Shown here: one piece after another, positions 37,667-59,518 of the stretch
How positions within the stretch are numbered: the first letter of the stretch is position 1
Layout of the letters: each line of letters opens with the position of its first letter
Source of the DNA: Alphaproteobacteria bacterium
GTDB taxonomy: Bacteria; Pseudomonadota; Alphaproteobacteria; JBFXJJ01
Direction: 5' to 3'
Assembly (NCBI GenBank): GCA_050175015.1
Contig: JBFXJJ010000003.1
Coordinates: 64,001 to 128,000 of the forward strand
DNA: 64,000 nt
Notes under the pieces: model-generated
The model's input: only the letters and a program-made list of their open reading frames with translations
Told to the model about the DNA's origin: nothing
Databases searched by the model: none
Position numbers and translations under genes: made by a program

Positions 37667-37817
37667 ATGGTCAGCAGTTCACCAAGGCTTCGCCGTCGTT
37701 GAAAACGATATGCTAAACCTGCTTTGCTTTATTTTTAACCGACATCTTTTCTTGTGCCGTGTTAGAAAGGCGAACCCTAACAATCATTAATTTTTACGGC
37801 ACATAATAAGAGAGGAT
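37667..37817 (+). promoter_or_regulatory. Structured 5' leader with uORF MVSSSPRLRRR (37667-37702) and SD-sequestering stem, upstream of the DUF2087 gene
   Basis: Promoter TTGTTT-N17-TATATT just upstream; stem 37744-37760 pairs with 37796-37817 (contains SD GAGG); loop GGCGAA complementary to TTCGCC in the uORF. Confidence 0.65.
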
Positions 37818-37822
37818 TTGTT

Positions 37823-38395
37823 ATGGTTAAAACAACTATACCTTTTTATTGTGAAGATATTTCACAACTGGCAAAGTCAATTACAGCACAGCTTAAGACA
37901 TTTGAAAAAAGCCCAAGTCATTTGGAAGTTTTAAATATTTTAGCCAAAGCCAAAGGTTTTCGCAATTTTCAGCATTTTAAAGCTAGCGATATTTCAGATT
38001 TAGAAAAACCTGAAGATAACACTGCTAATGAAATATCATTAGAAAATCATAATGCTGATTCAGAAATTGATGAAGCTAAGATTAAAAAAATTATGAGATA
38101 TTTTGATAATGATATGCGTCTTATCAGATGGCCATCAAAAGAAAGTCATAGGTTGTTATGTATCTGGGTTTTATGGTCAAATATTAATTCTAAGCAGAGT
38201 TTCAGCGAAAAAGAGATTAGTTCAAAGTTAGATGAAATGCATCTTTTTGGTGATTATGCCTTACTTCGCCGCTGGCTTTGTGATTATGGGCTAATGACCA
38301 GAAACAGTGATGGCAGCAATTATCAAAGGGTTGAATTGGTTCCATCTGTAGAAGTCAAAGCTTTAATTAAAGCCTTGAAAATGCGTAAAGGTTAA
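37823..38395 (+). CDS. DUF2087-domain protein
   Basis: SHLEVLNILAKAKGFRNFQHF N-terminal motif; RWPSK...SEKEI...FGDYALLRRWLCDYGLMTRNSDGSNYQR. Confidence 0.85.
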   Translation: MVKTTIPFYCEDISQLAKSITAQLKTFEKSPSHLEVLNILAKAKGFRNFQHFKASDISDLEKPEDNTANEISLENHNADSEIDEAKIKKIMRYFDNDMRLIRWPSKESHRLLCIWVLWSNINSKQSFSEKEISSKLDEMHLFGDYALLRRWLCDYGLMTRNSDGSNYQRVELVPSVEVKALIKALKMRKG

Positions 38396-38546: not shown

Positions 38547-39119
38547 TTAGGCATTAAATTTGCTTGTTATTTCGGCAACCCGTTGTCCAAATAGTTTGGC
38601 TGTTTCAATATCGCCTTTGGTTGGAGCTTCTTCAGGAGAGGAATCTGACGGCGATTGAGCGTAAGCACCAGAAAAACTTCCTAACCAGTTAATATCATCT
38701 CTTGCAGCAGATTTTTTGTTAGATGGCATTAAACCCGTTCCAACCCAAACCATACTATGCTGCATTGCAAAAGTTTGAAGATATGACATCGTGGAAAACT
38801 TATCACCATTTAAAGAGGCTGAATTGGTGAAGCCGCCTGCAACTTTGTTTTTCCATTTTTGTTCAAACCATCTTTTAGAGCTGTCATCGGCAAATTTTTT
38901 AAACTGCCATGATACCGAACCCATATAAGTTGGACTTCCAAAAATTATGGCTTGGCATGCATCGAGTTCTTGCCATTCTTGCTCTGTAAGATTTCCATCT
39001 TTGCTTATTTCATAAAGTTTAACATCAGGGTTAAGCGCTTTTGCCCCAGAAGCTACGGCTTCTGCCTGATTTTTTGTATGTCCATATCCACTAAAAAAGA
39101 CAACAGCTATTTTAATCAT
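38547..39119 (-). CDS. WrbA-like flavodoxin family protein
   Basis: FSGYGHT, IFGSPTYMG, GGFTNSASLNGDK. Confidence 0.92.
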   Translation of the reverse strand: MIKIAVVFFSGYGHTKNQAEAVASGAKALNPDVKLYEISKDGNLTEQEWQELDACQAIIFGSPTYMGSVSWQFKKFADDSSKRWFEQKWKNKVAGGFTNSASLNGDKFSTMSYLQTFAMQHSMVWVGTGLMPSNKKSAARDDINWLGSFSGAYAQSPSDSSPEEAPTKGDIETAKLFGQRVAEITSKFNA

Positions 39120-39211: not shown

Positions 39212-39255
39212 ATAAAAAAACAGCTTTAGGAATAATATCTAAAGCTGTTTTTATT
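39212..39255 (-). terminator. Terminator closing the virD4-proximal minus-strand cluster
   Basis: AAAAACAGCTTTAG...CTAAAGCTGTTTTT. Confidence 0.75.
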
Positions 39256-39265
39256 TTTGTTTAAA

Positions 39266-40204
39266 CTAACAACGAACTCTTTCTTGTTCCCGTTCCCGTT
39301 GTTTAATTAAATGGCGGCATAATCCTCGACTCCTAGTCGTTGCCTGAACCATAGTTGCTCTCCCCTTTTGCAGCAGGGCATCAATGTTTAGCTCACTTCC
39401 TCTTGAAGACGATTGAGATGTCATATTTTCACTGATGTTTAGTATAGCATTAATAGTGTCTAACTTTTCATTAGCAAATCTAGCATCGTTTAACCCAACG
39501 TTGTCAAATGCAATGCCATTATCAGCATTATTTATATTTATCATTTTGCTGAGGCACGAACGTAAATCTCTAGCATTTCGTCTCATTTGACGAATGGTTG
39601 TATCTCTAATATCCAATAATTTTGTGTATTTAGTGACCGATTTACCTAAATCATTGCTTCCAATGGAATCAAGATTGCGGCTGTCTGTAACCTGTACATT
39701 AGTTTTTTGGTTATTAAGCATCATCTGCTTGATTATAGCACTTTTATCGTGTTTAGCTTCGGGGGCGTGTCTTTCAAAAGCACTGATTTTTAGGTTAGGA
39801 AATTTTTTAGAAGATTCTTCAATGTTTCTAACTAAATTTTCAGCCGCTCTTTTGAAGTCTCTATCTTGGGCATCTTGAATGAATTTATTGGTGATACTTC
39901 GAGCTTTAGAATCGCCTAGTTCTTGAGCAAGACTTGCTTCCATTTGCTTTTTTATAAGAATAGTTCTTTCTTGAGCGCTGGTTGTTCTGCGATCGTGATC
40001 TGATGATGCCGAATTTTTTACCACACTGAAAACGGCATCTTTAATTTCTAATTCAGCCATTTCAATGCTTTTGCGTGAATTTCTCAATTTTAACTCAAGC
40101 ATTTCATTCTTTTTGATGAGAGAATCGGTGGTTTCTCCCGATACTTTATTATCAAAAACAAAATCTTTATTTGTTGTTGTAATTTGTACTCTTCTGTTTT
40201 GCAT
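39266..40204 (-). CDS. Hypothetical helical protein with Arg-rich C-terminus
   Basis: 312 aa, SD AGGGGA, no signal peptide; ends TTRSRGLCRHLIKQREREQERVRC. Confidence 0.75.
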   Translation of the reverse strand: MQNRRVQITTTNKDFVFDNKVSGETTDSLIKKNEMLELKLRNSRKSIEMAELEIKDAVFSVVKNSASSDHDRRTTSAQERTILIKKQMEASLAQELGDSKARSITNKFIQDAQDRDFKRAAENLVRNIEESSKKFPNLKISAFERHAPEAKHDKSAIIKQMMLNNQKTNVQVTDSRNLDSIGSNDLGKSVTKYTKLLDIRDTTIRQMRRNARDLRSCLSKMININNADNGIAFDNVGLNDARFANEKLDTINAILNISENMTSQSSSRGSELNIDALLQKGRATMVQATTRSRGLCRHLIKQREREQERVRC

Positions 40205-40283
40205 TTTTATTCCCCTTTATGGACAAAAATACGGTTTTATTTAAAATTAATATACAACAAAAATGTAGAAAATACCAGAAAAA

Positions 40284-40718
40284 TCAAAACAAATCGTCGA
40301 CAAAAAGATATAAAGCTTCAGAAAAAGTAGGAAATGAAGCCCCTATGGCAAAATCAATGCGGTCTATGATAAGATATTTGCGTTCTCTGGCGTCATACAC
40401 AAAGAGTTCTTCTGCAACTTTTCCTAAAAGAATTTTGCCTGCAAAGAAGTCATATCCTAGAAAATCAAGATTAACTTCAATTATTCCAGGGAGGATATAA
40501 CCTTGCTTTTCTCTCTCGTGAGATCTTGTTCCAAATAATTCTACTCCATTCCAGATTAGACCGTCAGAAAATTTTAACAAGGAGATATAATTAGGAGGAA
40601 TCGGCGAAAAGTAATGGCTGGTTAACATAGAACTTGAAAATCTAATAGCTTTGTCATCAGCAGGGATAAACATCACAGCATTATCTTTTTTTAATGTCTC
40701 TAAAATTCTGTTAAGCAT
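40284..40718 (-). CDS. SUKH-superfamily (SMI1/KNR4, YrhA-like) immunity-type protein
   Basis: IPPNYISLLKFSDGLIWNGVELFG...ILLG...LFVYD...FPTFSEAL pattern; directly after an HNH-domain gene. Confidence 0.8.
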   Translation of the reverse strand: MLNRILETLKKDNAVMFIPADDKAIRFSSSMLTSHYFSPIPPNYISLLKFSDGLIWNGVELFGTRSHEREKQGYILPGIIEVNLDFLGYDFFAGKILLGKVAEELFVYDARERKYLIIDRIDFAIGASFPTFSEALYLFVDDLF

Positions 40719-40749
40719 ATTTTTTACAGTCTAAACATTATTTTGGTTG

Positions 40750-41760
40750 TTATATATCAGCAGATCTTCCCATAGAACTTTTCATCTTAATGATTTCAAA
40801 AGTACTTTCTAAGAATCCTGCATAAACGCTTCTATCATGTTTGTCTTTGCCTCCAGGAGAGAATGTACCATTGTTAGGAACATAGACTTTCCCTACGGGG
40901 ACTGGAAGCAAAATTCTCTTAGGTTTTGCGCCATTAAATTGTTTTGTAATTTGTAAATCTAAAAACTTATGAAGGTCAATATGAAAGGGGTGTGTTTTTA
41001 TTAAACACAGATTAGAAAAATCATTAGTTCCGAGATAGTCCAGAGGAATTTTCATATGAACATTAAAATTTTCTGGGGCCCTTCCCTTTTTTAATAATTT
41101 TAATCCTTCTTCATCAACACCAGCTTCAAGACACTCATCTTGATGGTGATAACCAACAAATTTTAGAAAGTCTCGTCTAGCACGTTTAAAAGCTTTTCTC
41201 ATATCGTTTTTCCACGCTGTTGATTGAACAACCATCGTAACCTCTTGTAATTCCATACCTGGAAGATTGAAATTTTCAAATTCCCATTCCCAAGTGTTAA
41301 GATCCTCGTTGGTTGTATTCATCGGCGCCATAACTTGCGGCATCATTGGTTGATGCTGCTGCATATACGTTTGCGGCGGTGGAGACATCAACCGTTGTTG
41401 CTGTTGCTGTACGCTTTGAGGAGGCATAGGCTGCCTTGTTTGCGGCATATGATAACCACCATTGTTAGGCGGCATTTGCTGCGGAGCTTGATTTCTATAA
41501 GCTTGTTGTGGTGGCATTTGTTGAGGCGGCATCATTGGAGCTTGCTGATAATTTTCCATATCATTCCATTGATTGCCACTATAATCAGGAACGCCATATC
41601 CAGGATATGGTGACTGATAGCCGTTATTAGGCTGAGAGTAACCGTTATTGGAATTATTATTGTAGCCAGAATATCTCGGGGGATAGGCAGGAGGAACTGC
41701 TGAAGGCGTTTTCTTGACCACCTTCTTGTATCCGCCTTTATTTCCAGTCCAATCCCACAT
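40750..41760 (-). CDS. Protein with P/Q/N/Y/G-rich low-complexity N-terminus and C-terminal polymorphic-toxin-type HNH domain
   Basis: G-x-x-P-x-x-FNVHMKIPLDYLGTNDFSNLCLIKTHPFHIDLH aligns with toxin HNH VHHKLPLDDGGTNDFSNLVLI. Confidence 0.75.
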   Translation of the reverse strand: MWDWTGNKGGYKKVVKKTPSAVPPAYPPRYSGYNNNSNNGYSQPNNGYQSPYPGYGVPDYSGNQWNDMENYQQAPMMPPQQMPPQQAYRNQAPQQMPPNNGGYHMPQTRQPMPPQSVQQQQQRLMSPPPQTYMQQHQPMMPQVMAPMNTTNEDLNTWEWEFENFNLPGMELQEVTMVVQSTAWKNDMRKAFKRARRDFLKFVGYHHQDECLEAGVDEEGLKLLKKGRAPENFNVHMKIPLDYLGTNDFSNLCLIKTHPFHIDLHKFLDLQITKQFNGAKPKRILLPVPVGKVYVPNNGTFSPGGKDKHDRSVYAGFLESTFEIIKMKSSMGRSADI

Positions 41761-41909
41761 CTTTTTTAACCCGTAAAATTACAAACCTTGTTTCTTACTA
41801 TAGCAAAAAAACATACATAAGTTAATTATCAAAAAACCTGATACGCCAATTTATATTATGAATGAAAAATATTTAATGTGATATTAACAAAATATTACAA
41901 ATCTAAAAA

Positions 41910-44156
41910 TTAGCCAGCAACAGCGTTATCTTCTTCAAATTCTTCATATTCTTCCCAACTATCATCTCCAGCTTCTTCATCTTGGATATATTCTTCTAAT
42001 TCTTCGTCATCGTCAGCTACTAAATTGGCTAGGATATCATTGTTGTTGTCTTCTCTTTGAGCCACAATCCAATCAGGAACGAAGGGGGCAGGAGGCAAAT
42101 TTGACATTGCCAGCATTTTTTTATCAAGATAATAACGAGGAGCATCGGCCATAACAGGACGATTAATAAAACCTTGCATAATAATAACTTGTTTCAATGC
42201 TGGTAAGCTGAGCAAGGTAGAGGCACCCACAACAGATGTTCCCTGAAGTGAGCGGTTAACGTTTTTGGAGAAAGGATTACTTTGTTGCGAGAGACCTTCT
42301 TGTCGACTCCAAGATTCGATTTCTACGGTTTTGGTTCCGATCATTTTTTCGAAACGCTGGGCGGTTTGTTCATTGTTTTGAGGGAGAATAATTTTAGCTG
42401 CGGTGGTGGAAATAATAGTTTCAAGGTCATCTTTACCATATTGACCCGAGATTTGTCCCAAATCTTGTCCAATAAGAAGATATGAAACTTTTTGACCACG
42501 ACCAACCGCTGGTCCGTCTTTAACCGCACCTAATTTAGGCATTTGAGGAAACTCGTCGAGTACGAATAATGTTGGGCAAGGTCCCATTCTACCTTCGGTT
42601 TTATTAACGAAGTTAGGCGGGTTAGCAATTAAGTAGCCTGACATCAATTCAACGAATGTCCCAGTAATAATGTTAAGAGCTCTGGCATCAACTTGGTTAA
42701 CTGACATATAAACTGAAATAGGTTTCCATTCCCCAGTTATAGGGTCTCTCATACCTCTAAGGTCTCTAAAAGTAAAATCTGAGAATTTTGTCCTCGATCT
42801 AACAGCAGAGTTTTTGAAAATACCAATACCAGTAAGAGCAGTTGATAAAATAGAACCACGTTCTTTATCTGGAGTACCTGATAATTGGTTAAGTTCAACC
42901 ACAGCACGGTGGGCATAGCCATATTTACGGCACTCATTAACGGCATCATCAAGCAAATCACGCATAGGATCAGCCAAAGCTGCCATTTGATCGCCTTCTT
43001 CAGTTCTTTTTTTTATGTCTGCTGCTTGAGCCATCTGAGCTTCAGTTAACCAATCCAAAATCATAGCAATACTTGGTTCTGCACCGACCCATTCTTCAGG
43101 AAGAAGTTCCCAAGTTCCGATTGGAACATAGCTTTCAAGAGTTAAACTATCTTGTCTTAAAAGGTTAAGAGCATTTGCAGCGTCAAGATCTTGCATATCC
43201 ATATAATAACCTTCAAGCACAGCTTTATCTTCGTGATCAAAGGATTTTTCATAAAATCGAGCGATGAAATAGTCGTTAGCTCTAGCACGCTCGCATTTGT
43301 TAGTAATGTAATGGATAAATCCTGTTAAGGCGTTACGACCTGTTTTTGCCCAGTGAGGGTCAGCTCCGCCTTTTGGCTCTTCAACCAAAACGCTAACCAT
43401 CATATCGACATACATATCACGGGCTGGTCCCATTGATGGCATAGCTGATGGTGAAAGAGCGTTCCAACTTGGATAGTATACACCGTTATCCGGGTCATCT
43501 TCGGCACCCCAGTTAACAATGAATACAGGACCTTCTTTAATGCGTTGACCGCTTGTTTTAAAACAAAGTTCAGGTTTAGGGTCATTAATGATTAGACTTA
43601 TGCCTTTAGAGTTAAAAATTGTTGGAACAACAACTCCAACAGTTTTACCTGTTCCTGGAGGCGCGCAGACTAGAACAGACAAAGTTTCTGGAAGCATTAA
43701 CATACGACCACGCCATTTGCCAAGAACGACAATAAAGCCGTCAAAAAGCCCCATCTTTTTAATATCGTTAAATTCGGCTAAACGACCGTCGCCGTGAATG
43801 GTTGACATAAAGCCATAAGGATTCATAATCAAACCGCCCATAACCAGCATAAAGAATGAGAAAAAAGGCATACTAGGCAGAAGACTTACTGTTGTTAAAA
43901 CCTGCTTTGTTGTAAAAACAAACTTAATCCATTCAAAGTATTTTGACATTAGATATGATGGTTTGAAGGTCACAATTTTAATAAACTTAAGACCAGCACT
44001 AACAGTATCTTTAGAAAAACCATTTTCTATCATATAGGTGACAGGAAAGATAATCATCATAAAGATAAAAGTTGCAACCATAGAAAGTAAAATGGTCATA
44101 AACACCCATTTTATCGCATTATCTCTTTCTTTCCATTCACCGCCTCTGCGAGCCAT
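41910..44156 (-). CDS. virD4: Type IV secretion coupling protein (VirD4/TraG family)
   Basis: N-terminal TM helices; HGDGRLA; Walker A APPGTGKT; INDPKPE; Walker B FVLDEFPQM; QDLGQI...YG; acidic C-terminal tail. Confidence 0.92.
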   Translation of the reverse strand: MARRGGEWKERDNAIKWVFMTILLSMVATFIFMMIIFPVTYMIENGFSKDTVSAGLKFIKIVTFKPSYLMSKYFEWIKFVFTTKQVLTTVSLLPSMPFFSFFMLVMGGLIMNPYGFMSTIHGDGRLAEFNDIKKMGLFDGFIVVLGKWRGRMLMLPETLSVLVCAPPGTGKTVGVVVPTIFNSKGISLIINDPKPELCFKTSGQRIKEGPVFIVNWGAEDDPDNGVYYPSWNALSPSAMPSMGPARDMYVDMMVSVLVEEPKGGADPHWAKTGRNALTGFIHYITNKCERARANDYFIARFYEKSFDHEDKAVLEGYYMDMQDLDAANALNLLRQDSLTLESYVPIGTWELLPEEWVGAEPSIAMILDWLTEAQMAQAADIKKRTEEGDQMAALADPMRDLLDDAVNECRKYGYAHRAVVELNQLSGTPDKERGSILSTALTGIGIFKNSAVRSRTKFSDFTFRDLRGMRDPITGEWKPISVYMSVNQVDARALNIITGTFVELMSGYLIANPPNFVNKTEGRMGPCPTLFVLDEFPQMPKLGAVKDGPAVGRGQKVSYLLIGQDLGQISGQYGKDDLETIISTTAAKIILPQNNEQTAQRFEKMIGTKTVEIESWSRQEGLSQQSNPFSKNVNRSLQGTSVVGASTLLSLPALKQVIIMQGFINRPVMADAPRYYLDKKMLAMSNLPPAPFVPDWIVAQREDNNNDILANLVADDDEELEEYIQDEEAGDDSWEEYEEFEEDNAVAG

Positions 44157-44307
44157 AGTGATTTCCTCTGTTTTGCTTTTAAAAGGAAGTATTAACTTAT
44201 AATAAAATCAATAAATTTTCTAGCTTTTTTAAAATGTTTAAGCGTTTTTTGTTTATTTTGGAATCATAAATTTTTTTAAAGGTTATTAATGAAGATGTAA
44301 GCAGGGG

Positions 44308-45390
44308 TTAAGAATCAATGATTTTCTTAATTTTTGCAATGGTTTCACTGCTTGCTTTTTCGCCATTGTTGCGCGGGAGAACATCTTCTAAAATCTTAAT
44401 TTCATCAGGGCCGCCACTGCCTACTCGGCCGACGCCAACACTTAGTTCAGCCCAAATTTCGAACATATCTTCGGCATTTATGATAGTTCCATTGCTTAAA
44501 ATTACAATGGTTGCAACTTCAAAGGACTCGCCTTGGGCAGAAATTTTTTCAATTAAGCTTTCTTTCGCATCAATAACTTTTCTAACAGGCGATACTCTGT
44601 GGCTGTTTTCAGAGAACCACAAAGGATCTTCATCATTAAATCGTTCTTCATCAGCGAGCCAATCGCCATCTTCAGCGTCAACATAGCACAATACAATCTG
44701 TTCTTCTGCCATAGCAAGGTAAGCAATGTCATTGTTGCCGATTTTAACATCGCTAATAATTTCGTAGTTAGCGGTTTTAATAATATCTTCAATCGCATCA
44801 GCAGAAGATGCTTTTTTGGAAGCCACAGGTTTAGAGACAGGAGCTGCCTGCACTGGAGCTGGAGTGCTTCTAGGTGTCTCTTTGGGTTCCGCAGCAATAG
44901 ATGGCTTAGCAGATATTATTTCTGGTATTGGCTGGGTTTGTTGAGGTTTGTTTTCCGCGGCTACAGGCTCTGGAGCTTCAGGTTTCTTGACTTTAGTTCT
45001 GACTGCGGGGGGTCTTGTTTTTTTATAAGAGAGTTTTTTCTTAAGAGCAGGCTTTTTTTCTGACGGCTTATTAATAGAATTTTTGGCATAAAGCAAAGGA
45101 ACAACAAAAATCGAGAAGAAAACGTTTCTCCAAGGAATTAAGCAAGATGCTGTCCAGCCTGTAAGCCATATAGGGACAATGGCAAATATGGTAATGAAAA
45201 ACATCATTTCGCTGGTTTCATCGACAACCCAGCCTTTGAGCCATAGGCTATAAATATAAGACCAGTGGTCTGGACGCAAAGGATTGAAATTCCAATAAAA
45301 AACCATAACTTCGCGCAATCCGTTAAAGAAAACGAAGCTCCAAAGAAATCCGATAATGATTGTTCGGGTTGTGGTTATTAGTGAACTCAA
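44308..45390 (-). CDS. Membrane-anchored protein with Pro/Lys-rich linker and degenerate NERD-like domain (paralog 1)
   Basis: TTG start with SD GGAG; WNFNPL...W..GW TM module; WLADEERFNDEDPLWFSE...SPV. Confidence 0.7.
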   Translation of the reverse strand: MSSLITTTRTIIIGFLWSFVFFNGLREVMVFYWNFNPLRPDHWSYIYSLWLKGWVVDETSEMMFFITIFAIVPIWLTGWTASCLIPWRNVFFSIFVVPLLYAKNSINKPSEKKPALKKKLSYKKTRPPAVRTKVKKPEAPEPVAAENKPQQTQPIPEIISAKPSIAAEPKETPRSTPAPVQAAPVSKPVASKKASSADAIEDIIKTANYEIISDVKIGNNDIAYLAMAEEQIVLCYVDAEDGDWLADEERFNDEDPLWFSENSHRVSPVRKVIDAKESLIEKISAQGESFEVATIVILSNGTIINAEDMFEIWAELSVGVGRVGSGGPDEIKILEDVLPRNNGEKASSETIAKIKKIIDS

Positions 45391-45499
45391 AGCTGTACTC
45401 CAGCGGTCTTTTATCTTCTAGGATATAACAAACTTTTAAAATATAACTCAAAAAAGGTAAAAAAAAAATAAATTTTAAGAAGTTAAACTAATCTAGATA

Positions 45500-46612
45500 T
45501 TATTCATCTGGAGCGGCAGAAACAATGGCTAGAGAAATTAAATCTAAAATACCTTCGGCGATTTTGGGAGATGATGAAATATCAGTAATAATATTATCAA
45601 TATTATTAATTCCTCCGGAAAAACCTGTTGCGAAACTTCCAACATTAACCCCTAATTTTTGCCATATTTCTATCATATTTTCGCTGTTTAATATTGAGCC
45701 GTAACCTAAAGCCACAACAGCTTCAATATTGATGGGGTAATCTTCAGGTATAAGATTTGCTAAAATAGGGGTTAAAGACTCTTTTGCCTGCAATACGCCA
45801 AATGATGGTGACGGGCTAAAATTTTCTTCAGAAAACCAAATAGGCGGTTCATTATTAAAGCTATCTTCATCTGCAATCCATTCTTTTCCTTTTGGAGTTA
45901 AGCAGATTAAATAGATGCTTTGTGGTGATATTAAAACCAAATCAACAATATGATTTCCTATAGGCATTGATGAAAAAGCGATGTATCCACAACTGACAGC
46001 ATAATCGTGAAGGATTGCTGCTAAATCGTCCCAATCTGGTTCAGGAATAGCTTCTTCCTCAAGGTTAAATTCTTCATCAATATTCATTTCTGGAACAAGC
46101 GGTTCAACATGAGAAGAAGGAAGCAAAGAACTTTCCTCTTCAATCATTACAGCTGAATCCATAGGCTGCTGCGGTGCTGATGATACCGATGGTTTTCTTA
46201 GATTACTCACTGCAGCAGGAAGTGGTTCAGCGGAGGCTTTATTCTTTTTAGAAATAAGCGCAGGAGGTCTTTTAGGTCCATTGGTTTTTATTGGAGCAAT
46301 ATAAACATCAGTTTTTTCTTTTTTAACAAACAGACTGCTTTTTTTTATGCGTTTGTTAATCATATAACAAAAGACAACACCCAAAAGCCACAAAGGTATA
46401 ATTAGAAATAGTGATACAGCGAATAAAATATCGTTAGTTTCTTTTATTATCCAGCCAGACTGCCATTTTTGCGATAATTCTGCCCAGTCACTTGAGTTTA
46501 GGGGATTAAAATCCCATAAATTTATAGCGATAACTTTATAACCTTGAAGATAGAGAAAACTCCAAATCCCGATAAGCAAAATAAATAATAAAAGGCCTAA
46601 AATCTTTTTCAT
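45500..46612 (-). CDS. Membrane-anchored protein with Pro-rich linker and degenerate NERD-like domain (paralog 2)
   Basis: WDFNPL...WQSGW TM module; VDLVLISPQSIYLI...WIADEDSFNNEPPIWFSE...SP. Confidence 0.72.
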   Translation of the reverse strand: MKKILGLLLFILLIGIWSFLYLQGYKVIAINLWDFNPLNSSDWAELSQKWQSGWIIKETNDILFAVSLFLIIPLWLLGVVFCYMINKRIKKSSLFVKKEKTDVYIAPIKTNGPKRPPALISKKNKASAEPLPAAVSNLRKPSVSSAPQQPMDSAVMIEEESSLLPSSHVEPLVPEMNIDEEFNLEEEAIPEPDWDDLAAILHDYAVSCGYIAFSSMPIGNHIVDLVLISPQSIYLICLTPKGKEWIADEDSFNNEPPIWFSEENFSPSPSFGVLQAKESLTPILANLIPEDYPINIEAVVALGYGSILNSENMIEIWQKLGVNVGSFATGFSGGINNIDNIITDISSSPKIAEGILDLISLAIVSAAPDE

Positions 46613-46704: not shown

Positions 46705-47748
46705 TTAAAAACAACGTTTGTTTTTGCCTTTGTTGCAGGGATACTTATCACAACGGTAACATATTTCATTTGGTAGTTCTTCATTTTCAAAGAAAAATTT
46801 AATATTATCAAGTGTTGTTTTTGCAATTTCATAAATAGCTTCTTTGGTGAAAAAAGCCTGATGAGCAGTAACTATAGCATTTCCAAAGCTTAGAAGACGT
46901 GCGAGTTTATCATCATCTAAGACGTCATTAGAGAAATCAGAAAAGAAATAGTCACTTTCTTCTTCGTAAACATCAAGTCCTGCGGCACCAATTTTTCTTG
47001 ATTTTAACCCTTCGATTAAGGCATTAGTATCAATCAATTTGCCTCGTCCAGTGTTTATAATCATAACCCCATTTTTCATTTTTGATATGGTGTCACTATT
47101 AATAAGATGGGTTGTTTCTTTGGTTAAGGGGCAGTTTAGTGAGATAATATCTGATTTAGCGTAGATTTCATCTAAAGAAACATATTCATAACCCATTTTT
47201 TGTGCTGATTCTGTATCTGGAAAGGCATCACTGGCTAGAACATTCATACCAAAACCTTTTAGGATTCCAATTAAAGTTTTGCCGATTTTACCCGTTCCAA
47301 TTACTCCAGCCGTTTTTTGATGCATATCAAATCCCATCAAGCCAAATAATGTAAAGTTGCTTTCTCTGGTTTTGTTAAAAGCTTTATGAATTTTGCGGTT
47401 TAGAGCGAGCATTAAAGCAACGGCGTGTTCTGCCACGGCATAAGGAGAATAGGCAGGAACACGAACGACATGAATTTTATTGTAAGCCGCTTTGAAATCA
47501 ACATTGTTATATCCTGCACAACGCAAGGCAACAATTTTTACCCCACGATTGGCTAAGCCATCAATAACCTCAGAAGACAAAGTATCGTTTACAAAGGCAC
47601 AGACAACATCAGCACCATCTACTAATGATATGGTTTCTGGTCTTAGTTTGTTTTCAAAAAAAGCAAATTCAAAATTGTAATCTTTGTTAAGTTCAAGAAA
47701 ACTTTCTTTATCATAAGGCTTAGTATCGAAGAAGGCAATTTTAGTCAT
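46705..47748 (-). CDS. ldhA: D-lactate dehydrogenase / D-2-hydroxyacid dehydrogenase
   Basis: LRCAGYNNVD, VPAYSPYAVAEH, GTGKIG, INTGRG, LDVYEEE, TAHQAFFT. Confidence 0.93.
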   Translation of the reverse strand: MTKIAFFDTKPYDKESFLELNKDYNFEFAFFENKLRPETISLVDGADVVCAFVNDTLSSEVIDGLANRGVKIVALRCAGYNNVDFKAAYNKIHVVRVPAYSPYAVAEHAVALMLALNRKIHKAFNKTRESNFTLFGLMGFDMHQKTAGVIGTGKIGKTLIGILKGFGMNVLASDAFPDTESAQKMGYEYVSLDEIYAKSDIISLNCPLTKETTHLINSDTISKMKNGVMIINTGRGKLIDTNALIEGLKSRKIGAAGLDVYEEESDYFFSDFSNDVLDDDKLARLLSFGNAIVTAHQAFFTKEAIYEIAKTTLDNIKFFFENEELPNEICYRCDKYPCNKGKNKRCF

Positions 47749-48045
47749 TTTTCTTATCCCTTTTAAAAATCGACGGTGATACCTAAGTACATAATTATAA
47801 ATAATTATACTTTATAGATGTTGCGGCATTGACCAAAATCAAGAGGTTAAAACAAAAAACTTTTATTTTTTATAAGATAAAGCAAATTTAAAATGATTTT
47901 TTTTACTATAACAAAAAAATCATTGTATTCTTAATATGTTGAAAAGTTTATCCCTGATAAGATTTAATATCTATTTGAACTATATTGATAGTTTTGTATT
48001 ATATTAAGATAATCTTTAAATTAGGCTTTTATTGAAAGTTTGAAT

Positions 48046-50154
48046 ATGCGTATTTTTTTAAAAATTTCTTTGTTGTTTTTTGTTTGTTTTGCAGTCGTAA
48101 GATTAGCAGAAGCGAGTGAGTTTGTTTCAAAAAATGAGGAAAAATGCGCATCTTTACACCCAAGAATTAAAATTGAAAACCAGTTTTGGTATAATGATGA
48201 AGCTGTTTTGGCAGGGCGGGCGGCTTGTTATGATTTGGGACTTGCCTATTATAGCGGTACTGATGGTGTTGTGGCAAATAAAGAAAAAGCAGCTGCGTTT
48301 TTTATGAGAGCCTCAGAATACGAAAATTATGATGCTCAATATATGTTTGGACTTATGCTTTTTGATGGTGATGGCGGCTTGGCTAAAGATATTCCTAAAG
48401 CGATTGAGATTATCCGTAATGCTGGAGAAAAAGGAAGTGTTCTTGCTCAAAGTAAACTGGCACAGCTTTTTTCTGATGATAAATTTTATCTTAAAAATGA
48501 TAAAGACGCCCTTTATTGGTACTTAAAAGCGGCTCAAAGCGGTAATCTTCTGGCTCAATATGAGGTTGGGAATAGATATGAGCTTGGTATTGGTGTGGAT
48601 AAAGATTTAAAAACAGCGGTTAAGTGGTTTGGTGAAGCTGCTCAAAAAGGTTCTCCTGAAGCTCAATATCGTTTAGGTATGATGTTTTTTATGGGAGATC
48701 CCTTGCCTCAGGATCTAAAAATGGCATTTAATTTGATTAAGGCGTCTGCTGATAAAGGGTATGTATATGCTCAATACTTTTTGGGATATATGTATGAAAA
48801 AGGTTCAGGAGTAATTGAAGACAAAGACAAAGCCTTGGAATGGTATAAAAAAGCGGCGGCAGGAGATTTTGACAGAGCATATATCCGTCTTGCCGAATTG
48901 GAGCTCACAGAATATCAAATGATGCTTTCAAAAGCTTATCTATTAGGTGAAAAAGGTTTTAAAAAAGATGCTGCCAAATCAGCATATTGGTTAGAAAAAG
49001 CGGCTAAAAATGGTGATGCAGATGCTCAGTTTCAACTGGGGCACTTCTACTTGGAGGGTTTCGGTGTAGAAAAATCGGAAGAAAACGCAGCAATTTGGTT
49101 TAAAGCTGCTTCTTTAAACGGTTATGAAGGTGCGGAAGATATACTTAATGATATCCTTGTAAAGAAAGACGACGCAAATTTTTATAATGAAAATGAACAG
49201 CTTTTCGAGATGGCAGGAAGAGGCGGAGACGAAGCGCAGTTTCAGCTGGCGGTTAAATATGAAGAAAAATTTGATGCCAAAACAGAAAAGAGTCTAGATG
49301 ATAGAGATATTAAAGAGGCTTTGAGGTGGTATAAAAAATCAGCCGAGCAAAATAATCTTGATGCGATTTTTCGTTTAGGCAAGGCCTATTTCTCAGGTGA
49401 CATTATTGAAAAAGATGAGAAAAAGGGTTTGGATATGCTTAAAAAAGCTGGAGAAAAGGGAAATTATGAAGCCCAAAAAATGCTGGCTAAAGTTTTTGAA
49501 AAGCGTATAGGTTCAGGTTCAGAAAAATCGTATAGTTATTATGTTTTAAAAGACCCATCTTACTGGGATGCTCTTTATTGGTATGAAAAAACCGCAGAGT
49601 CAAAAAAGCCAGAAGATTTTTATCGTTTAGGTATATTTTATTTTAATCATCTTCCGGAAAAGAAAGGTTATGAAGAAAATCTTTATAATGCTTGGTATTG
49701 GTTAGAAAAAGCAAAGCAGGAAGGCGTGGAAAATGCTAGAGATCCAATTAAAAACATCAGCCGCAGAATAGGTAGAAACTATAGAATTAAAGAAAATAAG
49801 ATGATTGAAACCTTTATTGATAAGTTGATTAAGGATTCTGACCCAGATTTAGAAACGGCAGAAAAACTCGGCTTAAGACGTTATTCTCGTGAAGAAATGG
49901 CGCTTAGTGATTTGTTCTATGCTTACGGTGTTAATTTAAAGTGCGGTTATGATAAATCGGTAACAATCGGTAGAGGTTTTGCTTTGTATAAAAATGAAGT
50001 TGATGCGATGATTTCAAAATTAGTAATAAAAACAGGCAAAACTAAGATTGAGCATATTAAAAATGAGGCGGAAGAATTTGCTAGCGGTGTTATCTGCGAT
50101 ACCAAGGAAGCATACAAAGCAAAAAGCGTGCTCTTGAAGTTTAGCGATTTATAA
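48046..50154 (+). CDS. Exported Sel1-like repeat protein
   Basis: Signal peptide ending AEA; about 12 SLR units (AQY.LG..Y..G...A..W...AA.G). Confidence 0.92.
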   Translation: MRIFLKISLLFFVCFAVVRLAEASEFVSKNEEKCASLHPRIKIENQFWYNDEAVLAGRAACYDLGLAYYSGTDGVVANKEKAAAFFMRASEYENYDAQYMFGLMLFDGDGGLAKDIPKAIEIIRNAGEKGSVLAQSKLAQLFSDDKFYLKNDKDALYWYLKAAQSGNLLAQYEVGNRYELGIGVDKDLKTAVKWFGEAAQKGSPEAQYRLGMMFFMGDPLPQDLKMAFNLIKASADKGYVYAQYFLGYMYEKGSGVIEDKDKALEWYKKAAAGDFDRAYIRLAELELTEYQMMLSKAYLLGEKGFKKDAAKSAYWLEKAAKNGDADAQFQLGHFYLEGFGVEKSEENAAIWFKAASLNGYEGAEDILNDILVKKDDANFYNENEQLFEMAGRGGDEAQFQLAVKYEEKFDAKTEKSLDDRDIKEALRWYKKSAEQNNLDAIFRLGKAYFSGDIIEKDEKKGLDMLKKAGEKGNYEAQKMLAKVFEKRIGSGSEKSYSYYVLKDPSYWDALYWYEKTAESKKPEDFYRLGIFYFNHLPEKKGYEENLYNAWYWLEKAKQEGVENARDPIKNISRRIGRNYRIKENKMIETFIDKLIKDSDPDLETAEKLGLRRYSREEMALSDLFYAYGVNLKCGYDKSVTIGRGFALYKNEVDAMISKLVIKTGKTKIEHIKNEAEEFASGVICDTKEAYKAKSVLLKFSDL

Positions 50155-59019: not shown

Positions 59020-59181
59020 AAAAAACTCCCAAAAATTAAATTAAAATCTCTAATGTTTTGCCATATTGGGCTGCTATAGGCAACAAGTTATTAGGCATAA
59101 AAAACAAATAAAGTTAAAAAAAAGTGTAAAATAATTTATCAACTATTGGCTTTTTTTTCAAATAGAACATATAATATCACT

Positions 59182-59480
59182 GCCGTTTTTGCGGCTATGA
59201 CGCTAAACCTCTTACGGAATAAGCGTAGTGGACTCGGGGGCGGTACCCGACGCCTCCACCATAATCTATCTTATGGGGGCGAAATAGGATCGACACGCGT
59301 AGTAAAGGTCTGAGTTGTGTTCGGCATTGTACCACCGTTATCGGGCTAATTTTGATGAGTGCCAATGATAATTGCGCTCCAGTTGCAGTTGCTGCTTAAT
59401 AGTAGCATAGCGACAATTTAAATTCCTATGTGGTGAGACATATAGGTGGGGTTTGGGACACCTAGCAACAGAAGTCCCAC
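59182..59480 (+). ncRNA. ssrA: Two-piece (circularly permuted) tmRNA; tag ANDNCAPVAVAA; outer ends approximate
   Basis: Acceptor piece ends CGCCTCCACCA (59261); 13-nt spacer; coding piece starts GGGGGCGAAATAGGATCGAC (59275), giving G3-U70; tag ORF 59361-59399; TATAAT at 59170. Confidence 0.95.
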
Positions 59481-59518
59481 TTTTGATAAACTTAAATTTA
59501 AAGAAAGAATACGTCGGA

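Follow-up and report, generated by a model that had tools for sequence, protein, structure and literature searches.

A VirD4 coupling-protein module conserved in uncultured Alphaproteobacteria encodes a candidate DNase effector, a predicted SUKH immunity protein and membrane-tethered NERD-fold proteins

Introduction

Why would a VirD4 coupling protein be encoded in one cluster with two membrane-anchored nuclease-like proteins, an HNH protein and a SUKH protein, and what would such a coupling protein deliver? The selection of protein substrates by type IVA coupling proteins is known in detail for few systems, those using the XVIPCD domain of Xanthomonadales and those using the BID domains of Bartonella. 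The locus analyzed here lies in a stretch of 64,000 nucleotides (hereafter the window), positions 64001-128000 of contig C3 of the alphaproteobacterial genome G000 (G000:C3:64001-128000). Throughout the text, C is followed by a contig number, G by the number of a relative's genome and L by the number of a retrieved locus. The G000 assembly comprises 2.53 Mb in 49 contigs, is 99.4% complete and has about 35% G+C; the cluster is chromosomal, on a 213-kb contig with housekeeping genes on both sides. The only public sequencing run containing this stretch is a landfill metagenome, its probable source.

The cluster consists of the following open reading frames (ORFs), in which TM-NERD denotes a transmembrane protein with a NERD-like domain and T4CP a type IV coupling protein:

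45500-46612, minus strand: TM-NERD paralog 1, ORF of 370 aa, the upstream and more divergent copy
44308-45390, minus strand: TM-NERD paralog 2, ORF of 360 aa with a TTG start, the conserved copy adjoining virD4 upstream
41910-44156, minus strand: VirD4/TraG-type T4CP, ORF of 748 aa (PF02534)
40750-41760, minus strand: HNH protein, ORF of 336 aa (fold model and H-N-H-H motif)
40284-40718, minus strand: SUKH (YrhA-family) protein, predicted immunity protein, ORF of 144 aa (NF038335)

A preliminary description, made from the sequence of the window, had taken this cluster for a protein-secretion coupling complex. We propose that it is the coupling-protein operon of a domesticated type IV secretion system (T4SS), which also encodes a DNase as dedicated effector, the corresponding immunity protein and NERD-fold accessories that are acidic and tethered to the membrane; judged from sequence, we give this proposal about an even chance of being right.

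Results

The module is conserved in order and strand across uncultured Alphaproteobacteria

We searched with an alignment of the HNH domain, keeping one genome per species, and retrieved 80 loci. In 78 of them, all assigned to uncultured Alphaproteobacteria by their record titles, the genes for one or two TM-NERD proteins, VirD4, the HNH protein and SUKH kept one order and shared a strand. SUKH was directly downstream and VirD4 directly upstream of the HNH gene in all 78 alphaproteobacterial loci, and TM-NERD was upstream of VirD4 in 73 of them, the contigs of the other five ending inside virD4. The HNH gene of L052 and L060 was missed by tblastn and is placed there by the alignment search and the aligned rows. 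The gaps between the VirD4 and HNH genes were mostly 0-49 nt across loci. By record title, the module-bearing genomes came mostly from gut, rumen or faeces, human and animal.

We also analyzed an even sample of 301 genomes of Alphaproteobacteria. TM-NERD was detected in 17 genomes, the HNH profile in 27 and both in 16, while 11 genomes contained HNH paralogs only, without TM-NERD. The two genes were on one contig, 2.2-2.9 kb apart, in 15 of the 16 genomes holding both. Overall, the module is real and strongly conserved, and the neighbourhood read in the window recurs in its relatives.

VirD4 belongs to a scattered VirB-type machine

The VirD4 protein matched PF02534 (5e-53; 181 bits against a cut-off of 20.1), PF12696 (1.7e-19) and PF10412 (2.7e-16). 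It reached no NCBIfam T4CP subfamily cut-off (best 143.7 bits against 250), and phmmer against PDB sequences gave 0 matches at E ≤ 0.001. Its intact Walker motifs and acidic C-terminal tail, as announced in the preliminary description, can be read in the translation: Walker A is PPGTGKT and Walker B is a hydrophobic run followed by DE. Two hydrophobic stretches, a putative membrane anchor, were likewise read by eye at the N-terminus.

Orthologues from five other GTDB families were 50-69% identical to this protein. T4CPs of lower identity (44% in G021 and G032, 35% in G016, and 33% on sphingomonad megaplasmids, the nearest plasmid T4CPs) were encoded in canonical VirB10-B11-D4 clusters without the three module partner genes; on the megaplasmids, these are VirB4-B11-D4 clusters beside topoisomerase III and primase genes. 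A tree was built from 21 T4CPs; of its 13 module-linked sequences, 12 formed one clade (support 100/99), with G031 just outside. This tree was midpoint-rooted, and therefore no direction of change can be claimed.

The genes of the machine were recovered elsewhere in G000. The region C4:42429-63281 encodes two VirB8, VirB9, a 1563-aa beta-flower/RHS-repeat protein, a giant VirB10 of 1760 aa that itself carries beta-flower repeats, VirB11 and an M23 peptidase. The sole VirB4-like ATPase of the genome (831 aa, a weak PF03135 match) is encoded in C9:16403-30651 and adjoins a type IVb pilus set composed of a TcpQ-like protein, a secretin, PilO, a T2SSE ATPase and T2SSF. Three VirB6-like ORFs, slightly below the Pfam cut-off, were found at C3:195-200 kb. 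VirB4 was present in five of five module-bearing genomes and VirB10 in four of five; their VirB10-domain ORFs were giant (1761-2838 aa, and 2227-2838 aa in relatives). In G031, the SUKH gene is directly followed by virB8, virB9 and a giant ORF. The virB genes thus exist outside the window, directly behind the module in one relative, and the VirD4 that had been called stand-alone belongs, on sequence grounds, to a scattered VirB-type T4SS.

Inside the window itself, the whole-genome searches gave no match to three relaxase families, VirB4, VirB10 or VirB6, in agreement with the absence of relaxase and virB genes noted earlier. We considered that the cluster could be the remnant of an integrative and conjugative element; this candidate was dropped, as the window contains no such match and the module is vertically conserved.

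A second chromosomal T4CP (1013 aa, 44% identical to the VirD4 of the window) is encoded at C16:22010-26280, and the same observation extends to L037 and L038. Its start overlaps the end of a gene for a 409-aa pentapeptide-repeat protein, and this arrangement is also kept in G018 and G038. Because the pentapeptide-repeat/T4CP pair recurs in these two genomes, two T4CPs occur in the clade, each accompanied by a partner gene of its own. The third T4CP of G000 is on a 5-kb Rep3 contig. A 1169-aa ORF (C16:11072-14581), about 8 kb away from the second T4CP, is flanked by ORFs of 120 aa and 306 aa; from a motif, we presume its N-terminus to be Cas9-like.

The HNH protein carries an intact colicin-type motif and a tail of its own

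At its N-terminus the HNH protein has a conserved MWDW(S/T)G motif, which a P/Q/N-rich disordered linker separates from the HNH domain; a conserved tail with GR as its last residues follows. An AlphaFold2 (AF2) model of its last 187 residues had a predicted local distance difference test (pLDDT) score of 81. The best PDB matches of this model in Foldseek were the DNases of colicins E7 and E9 and of pyocin, and these were weak (best E 0.031, probability up to 0.97, TM-score 0.42 by target, 87 columns). The protein matched no Pfam family (E ≤ 0.1) and no NCBIfam family, and hence no curated HNH or colicin-DNase model. The motif H-x14-N-x9-H-x3-H, which we take to be the spacing of colicin DNases, is intact in the window protein, and 78 of the 81 aligned rows retain it. 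The claim of the preliminary description that the neighbouring nucleases are catalytically degenerate does not hold for this protein; it is partly borne out for the NERD-fold domain, in which the Lys is replaced.

The C-terminal tail, of about 35 residues, was conserved across both subclades of the module. An exhaustive search with the HNH-domain profile gave 677 family representatives at E ≤ 0.001; among the best 150 of these, only 23 reached the tail of the VirD4-linked members, and the domain was often located at the extreme C-terminus of long proteins, which are more distant representatives. Two further HNH/SUKH sets were present in G000: two tandem short HNH proteins with a SUKH gene at C3:129762-131666, 1.8-3.7 kb past the window end, and a SUKH gene with a 647-aa protein bearing a central HNH domain at C1:169663-172042. 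These paralogous sets contain neither the MWDWSG motif nor the VirD4-linked tail, and tandem HNH arrays are also present in relatives. A tail that is both conserved and specific to the VirD4-linked members counts, at the level of sequence, for a link to VirD4.

We found no signal peptide or known trafficking domain in the HNH protein, from its translation and a Pfam scan. Of the two retrieved loci that do not belong to the clade, one is on a Butyrivibrio chromosome, where the same HNH domain (35% identity, E 2e-17) forms the C-terminal tip of a 687-aa PT-HINT protein, whose gene is followed by an SMI1_KNR4 gene; this homologue matches PF01844 at 0.0056, below the cut-off. This architecture makes the Butyrivibrio locus a polymorphic toxin of the classical kind, protected by SUKH immunity.

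SUKH is modelled over the catalytic strand of the HNH domain

The SUKH gene begins 31 nt past the HNH gene. Its product matched the NCBIfam family NF038335 (YrhA family; 68.5 bits against a cut-off of 55, 5.5e-19). A direct Pfam scan of the window protein gave no match; by hhalign, it aligned with an SMI1_KNR4-positive protein (96.3% probability, E 1.5e-09, 117 columns), a target which itself matches PF09346 at 3.6e-09. A search of its profile against PDB sequences returned only 2icg_A, at E 0.29.

The HNH-SUKH complex was modelled with a score of 0.86 (0.86, 0.85 and 0.86 in the individual runs), against 0.01 for the best control. The mark used for this score was attained by 58 of 80 solved complexes and by two of 110 mismatched pairs. 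The runs shared at least 92% of contacts, with partner pLDDT of at least 91. The modelled interface involves residues 81-87 and 115-116, including the strand of the catalytic His86 as well as His115. The model thus supports a binding of SUKH over the catalytic strand of the HNH domain.

TM-NERD proteins combine membrane helices with an acidic nuclease-like domain

The two TM-NERD paralogs share 28-29% identity. Paralog 1 begins with membrane helices, which a disordered linker connects to an acidic C-terminal domain of the PD-(D/E)xK/NERD-like type. In the AF2 model of paralog 2 (pLDDT 80), helices span residues 2-33, 40-51, 59-84 and 87-107, followed by a disordered Lys/Pro-rich linker (130-194) and an alpha/beta domain (196-360). 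Foldseek of this model gave weak PD-(D/E)xK matches, the best being 3fov (E 0.0052), with NucS/EndoMS, SfsA and R.BspD6I also among them, and a protein atlas gave NERD clusters as leads for the same paralog. Neither window copy matches Pfam, whereas PF08378 (NERD) was matched by 12 of 27 family members at E ≤ 1 (best 2e-06). At E ≤ 0.001, a search for homologues retrieved 851 proteins; of the 120 listed, two carry PF08378 and one is named NERD by NCBI. With these fold models, the Pfam and NCBIfam matches and the hhalign result, the domain identities proposed at the outset (two TM/NERD-like proteins, VirD4, a low-complexity HNH protein, SUKH and an orphan) were upheld.

The NERD catalytic triad D...(D/E)xK was incomplete in this family, which retains the first Asp; in most of the 27 members, D-x-E stands in place of the second motif. 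Paralog 2, the downstream copy, has this D-x-E form, with the Lys of (D/E)xK replaced, and in the upstream paralog 1 the Asp of the D-x-E motif is lost too. Some active enzymes of the PD-(D/E)xK fold have no catalytic Lys, so the TM-NERD proteins may still have nuclease activity. The NERD-fold domain has a net charge of -20 in paralog 2 and -17 in paralog 1, with a median of -9 over the 27 members. Such an acidic domain fits a repurposed fold without DNA binding. The preliminary idea that the complex was built from repurposed nuclease folds may therefore apply to the NERD-fold domain; it does not extend to the HNH protein, an intact colicin-type DNase by its motif and no degenerate recognition piece.

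Two TM-NERD copies were confined to the subclade with the long HNH protein. There, the long HNH protein is accompanied by both TM-NERD copies and by a VirD4 whose last 40 residues are strongly acidic (-15 to -29); the short HNH form goes with one TM-NERD and a weakly acidic VirD4 tail. This co-occurrence may reflect a single shared ancestry event.

Discussion

A proposed DNase delivery route and the explanations competing with it

The proposal of a coupling-protein operon draws on what was observed, namely gene content and its conservation, the folds, an HNH motif that is intact and a machine encoded in the genome, and on the modelled HNH-SUKH binding. The host system would be the chromosomally scattered, lineage-wide VirB-type (P-type) T4SS of uncultured Alphaproteobacteria, with VirD4 as its substrate receptor and ATPase. 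The HNH protein would be a dedicated cytoplasmic cargo with a predicted active DNase of the colicin type and no signal peptide, and in the producer cell SUKH would keep this DNase inactive by covering its catalytic strand, as in the model. We infer that the cargo docks on the coupling complex via its family-specific C-terminal tail or its N-terminal MWDWSG motif, that VirD4 strips SUKH and passes the DNase to the VirB channel, and that the DNase would be delivered in a contact-dependent manner into neighbouring cells as its target. One or two TM-NERD proteins would contact VirD4 as inner-membrane accessory subunits. Their Lys-less acidic NERD-fold domain, carried on a long cytoplasmic linker, would then be a protein-binding platform rather than a nuclease, a role that may be likened, functionally, to that of DotM beside DotL.

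Several observations weigh against this proposal. The catalytic HNH residues are lost in G031, L126 and L130, and since SUKH and TM-NERD are retained there, the dead HNH protein with its retained partners suggests a role beyond toxicity. In at least 11 GTDB families, virD4 is joined by orthologues of the HNH/SUKH pair, strictly in one copy; a pair fixed in this way is, by sequence comparison, unlike the variable cassettes of polymorphic toxins, and instead of variable tips on a conserved trafficking domain, one toxin type was found throughout the VirD4-linked HNH proteins. Among 5055 G000 ORFs of at least 60 aa, none other than the HNH protein has the MWDWSG motif or the tail, so neither of them is a general secretion signal. 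Foldseek gave 0 matches at E ≤ 0.001 for the HNH model and none for the paralog 2 model. The pass of the HNH-SUKH complex model, which used our own alignments as input, may come in part from likeness to solved DNase-immunity complexes. The machine of G000 is known from B4, B6-like, B8, B9, B10, B11 and D4, the subunits that the searches covered. Finally, nine PF03432 relaxase matches face only three T4CPs in G000, which keeps a DNA-transfer role in consideration.

The loss of catalytic residues would fit a structural explanation, that of the preliminary description, in which the HNH-SUKH heterodimer and TM-NERD are permanent adaptor or regulatory subunits of VirD4 that recruit other substrates, forming a type IVA counterpart, made from nuclease folds, of DotL-DotM-DotN-IcmSW. 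We regard it as unlikely, even if much of the locus agrees with it: the four gene families show strict 1:1 synteny throughout the clade, the three lineages without HNH residues have still kept the pair and TM-NERD, the tail and N-terminal motif belong to a single G000 protein, the NERD-fold domain is acidic, and the long HNH form, double TM-NERD and very acidic VirD4 tail go together (with the possible single ancestry event as another source of this pattern). In addition, the TM-NERD, short degenerate HNH and SUKH-like genes of L130 (8852-10963, on a contig labelled uncultured Bacteroidales) are adjacent to one another and adjoin genes for VirB6-like membrane proteins, with no virD4 within 10 kb. 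A pure scaffold would not need the active site that 78 of 81 rows conserve, however, and SUKH is modelled like an inhibitor, over the catalytic strand of a protein that is homologous, as SUKH is, to a bona fide toxin-tip/immunity pair. A related idea, to which we likewise attach little probability, is that TM-NERD and HNH-SUKH constitute an integral gate of VirD4, as a type IVA coupling complex evolved from nuclease folds. The DNase would then be a 'specialised effector', at once a requirement for firing and a toxin, by analogy with the toxin-bearing spikes of the type VI secretion system, and such a structural role would explain the dead HNH-SUKH pairs retained in three lineages. We prefer cargo and immunity to a receptor subunit because the HNH motif is intact, SUKH is modelled over the active site and both proteins have toxin-tip/immunity homology; on sequence and model, the pair reads better in this way.

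Coupling of DNA would suit this T4CP, whose family is of the conjugative VirD4/TraG/TrwB type. The module could mobilise relaxase islands in trans or export DNA, with the HNH and NERD-fold proteins processing or anchoring DNA and SUKH acting as a regulator. This is agreeable with a T4CP flanked by two nuclease folds, with nearest outgroups in megaplasmid VirB4-B11-D4 clusters accompanied by topoisomerase III and primase, and with the relaxase content of G000, where PF03432 matches were found on C10, C3 (14.7 kb), C2, C4 (201 kb), C8, C21, C34, C35 and C33, together with one PF03389 match; many mobilisable elements of this genome would need a helper T4SS. One relaxase match was found in G018. 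By contrast, the module and its T4SS persist in G023, G031 and G038 (87%, 63% and 94% complete), which have no match to the three relaxase families and make up three of the five module-bearing genomes searched. The strongly acidic NERD-fold domain is an unlikely DNA binder, HNH DNases of the colicin type cut without specificity and do not give a covalent pilot adduct, and the SUKH partner and the Butyrivibrio homologue favour a toxin and its immunity. We therefore consider a DNA-transfer module quite unlikely. The earlier preference for protein secretion over conjugation finds backing in the missing adjacent relaxase and in the three relaxase-free genomes, and is weakened by the nine matches of G000.

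Very unlikely, in our opinion, is a pair that only hitch-hikes beside virD4, the HNH and SUKH proteins being an autonomous, T4SS-independent toxin-immunity or addiction pair and TM-NERD an unrelated membrane protein. HNH/SUKH sets do occur away from T4SS genes in G000 (the two paralogous sets on C3 and C1) and HNH sets in the 11 sampled genomes without TM-NERD, and SUKH-linked nuclease toxins use many export routes, according to one survey (PMC3113570). A chance neighbour, on the other hand, would not hold its order and strand in 78 of 78 loci from at least 11 families, with the HNH gene mostly within 0-49 nt of virD4. The VirD4-linked members also have a tail and an N-terminal motif that are missing from the paralogs, and no signal peptide or known trafficking domain that would serve another route.

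Comparison with known secretion systems and toxins

We found no published description of this gene combination, in a search that did not extend to supplementary files, and, among the papers listed, none joining VirD4 with SUKH, RF32 with type IV secretion or, judged by title, VirD4 with NERD; the combination had not been recognised from characterised systems in the preliminary description either. The closest functional parallel is given by the bacteria-killing T4SSs of the Xanthomonadales-like group (X-T4SSs), which recruit effector/immunity pairs through VirD4, as set out in a review (PMC6536674). Like the system described here, these are chromosomal class A (VirB/VirD4) machines, and both encode a toxic effector, here a candidate one, with a cognate immunity protein; one X-T4SS pair is inside the vir locus (PMC6536674). 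X-T4SSs are also characterised by a VirB7 that ends in an N0 domain (PMC6536674). VirD4 is the effector receptor of X-T4SSs, the role that we propose by analogy, and the Stenotrophomonas T4SS effector TfdA (PMC11253643) provides a precedent for a nuclease in this role. The differences are several. X-T4SSs occur in Gamma- and Betaproteobacteria and the module in Alphaproteobacteria. The HNH protein has no Pfam match resembling XVIPCD, a domain of about 120 residues (PMC6536674), and has instead its own tail of about 35 residues and the MWDWSG motif. A single, strictly conserved effector is encoded beside virD4, and not a dispersed, variable set sharing one signal; TM-NERD accessory genes, scattered vir genes, a giant repeat-bearing VirB10 and a second T4CP are further distinctions. 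By analogy, the module would work most like an X-T4SS, yet it falls outside that group as far as tested, with no XVIPCD-like match.

If the DNase is indeed T4SS cargo, this would be a bacteria-killing T4SS outside the Xanthomonadales-like group, and its recognition signal would differ. Further systems of this kind, relying on other recognition signals, are foreseen but not described in the X-T4SS review (PMC6536674). A whole clade of uncultured Alphaproteobacteria keeps VirD4 in one fixed four-gene module, together with a predicted DNase, the predicted inhibitor of this DNase and an acidic, tethered nuclease-fold protein. This points to a mode of loading a bacterial weapon that has not been described. 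The tail, the N-terminal motif, the acidic tail of VirD4 and the NERD-fold domain would be the candidate contacts for substrate loading and immunity stripping at the T4CP.

The position of TM-NERD recalls the Dot/Icm system, in which dotM is directly upstream of dotL. The DotL-DotM-DotN-IcmSW-LvgA complex (PMC5802825, PMC7280309) likewise joins a T4CP to a membrane-anchored accessory of about 370 aa, which presumably captures substrates with a charged domain in the cytoplasm. Both also have small partner proteins that are cytoplasmic. DotM is all-alpha and its positive patches bind acidic peptides (PMC5802825), whereas the TM-NERD domain is an alpha/beta PD-(D/E)xK fold, strongly negative, and related to DotM in neither sequence nor fold; the T4CP here is VirD4-type and not DotL-type. 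The candidate that the TM-NERD paralogs are DotM homologues was dropped for this difference of fold (alpha/beta against all-alpha) and for the lack of a Pfam or NCBIfam match. Their resemblance is one of position and presumed role only.

The HNH-SUKH pair itself resembles the SUKH-linked polymorphic nuclease toxins, which include HNH domains of the colicin E7/E8/E9 type with SUKH immunity (Zhang, Iyer and Aravind 2011; PMC3113570). The shared traits are an HNH toxin domain at the C-terminal end, a SUKH gene immediately downstream, a chromosomal location, extra HNH/SUKH copies in the genome and the direct PT-HINT homologue in Butyrivibrio. In contrast, none of the trafficking domains named in that paper (two-partner, ESX/WXG, Sec) is present in the HNH protein, and 'type IV secretion' appears 0 times in its text (PMC3113570). 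The pair is also orthologous and fixed beside virD4, unlike a variable, strain-specific cassette.

Its machine is comparable to another one with a scattered layout. The rvh T4SS of the Rickettsiales has scattered and duplicated components. Both are P-type, chromosomal and distributed over several loci with duplicates (here two VirB8 and three VirB6-like), and both are apparently inherited vertically within their lineage. Unlike in rvh, virD4 is here separate from the virB8-11 genes and accompanied by partner genes of its own, a second T4CP and a giant VirB10 with beta-flower repeats are present, and the hosts, with genomes of 1-2.5 Mb, appear free-living or gut-associated.

Limits of the cluster and other features of the window

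The five genes listed above are the first of six co-oriented ORFs on the minus strand, which span 39266-46612 exactly as the preliminary description had drawn them, between an ldhA-type gene and a flavodoxin gene. The sixth ORF and the flanking features are:

39266-40204, minus strand: orphan with an Arg-rich C-terminus, ORF of 312 aa, co-oriented and adjacent, outside the conserved module
39216-39252, strand not assigned: palindromic terminator-like hairpin with a 15-bp stem, an A-run before and a T-run after
46705-47748: D-2-hydroxyacid dehydrogenase gene flanking the module (PF02826, 1.8e-54)
38547-39119: flavodoxin-like gene flanking the module (PF03358, 1e-09)

The orphan matched no Pfam or NCBIfam family. 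It was absent beside the module in 79 of 80 loci, L072 providing one match at 23%, and was likewise not found in the five relatives examined; a search of 5.8 billion proteins gave a single homologue (46% identity). The orphan, initially counted as part of the module, was therefore dropped as a conserved sixth member. The hairpin is 14 nt past the sixth gene, between the orphan and the flavodoxin-like gene, where a terminator had been announced. Terminator-like sites in total, however, were not above shuffles (7 against 6.7 ± 2.5). Promoter-like sites were not above shuffles either (39 against 32 ± 6.3), and we therefore claim no promoter.

Other features were observed in the window. A COG3860 RNA motif (RF02940, 61.8 bits) is located at 37668-37724 on the plus strand, directly 5' of a DUF2087 gene (37823-38395), and a two-piece alphaproteobacterial tmRNA at 59143-59483, plus strand (RF01849, 258.5 bits). 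An ORF of 704 aa at 48040-50154, plus strand, has a signal-peptide-like start and, by eye, repeated Sel1-like motifs; over this ORF, at 48-50 kb, the GC skew reaches about +0.3, the strongest of the profiled stretch.

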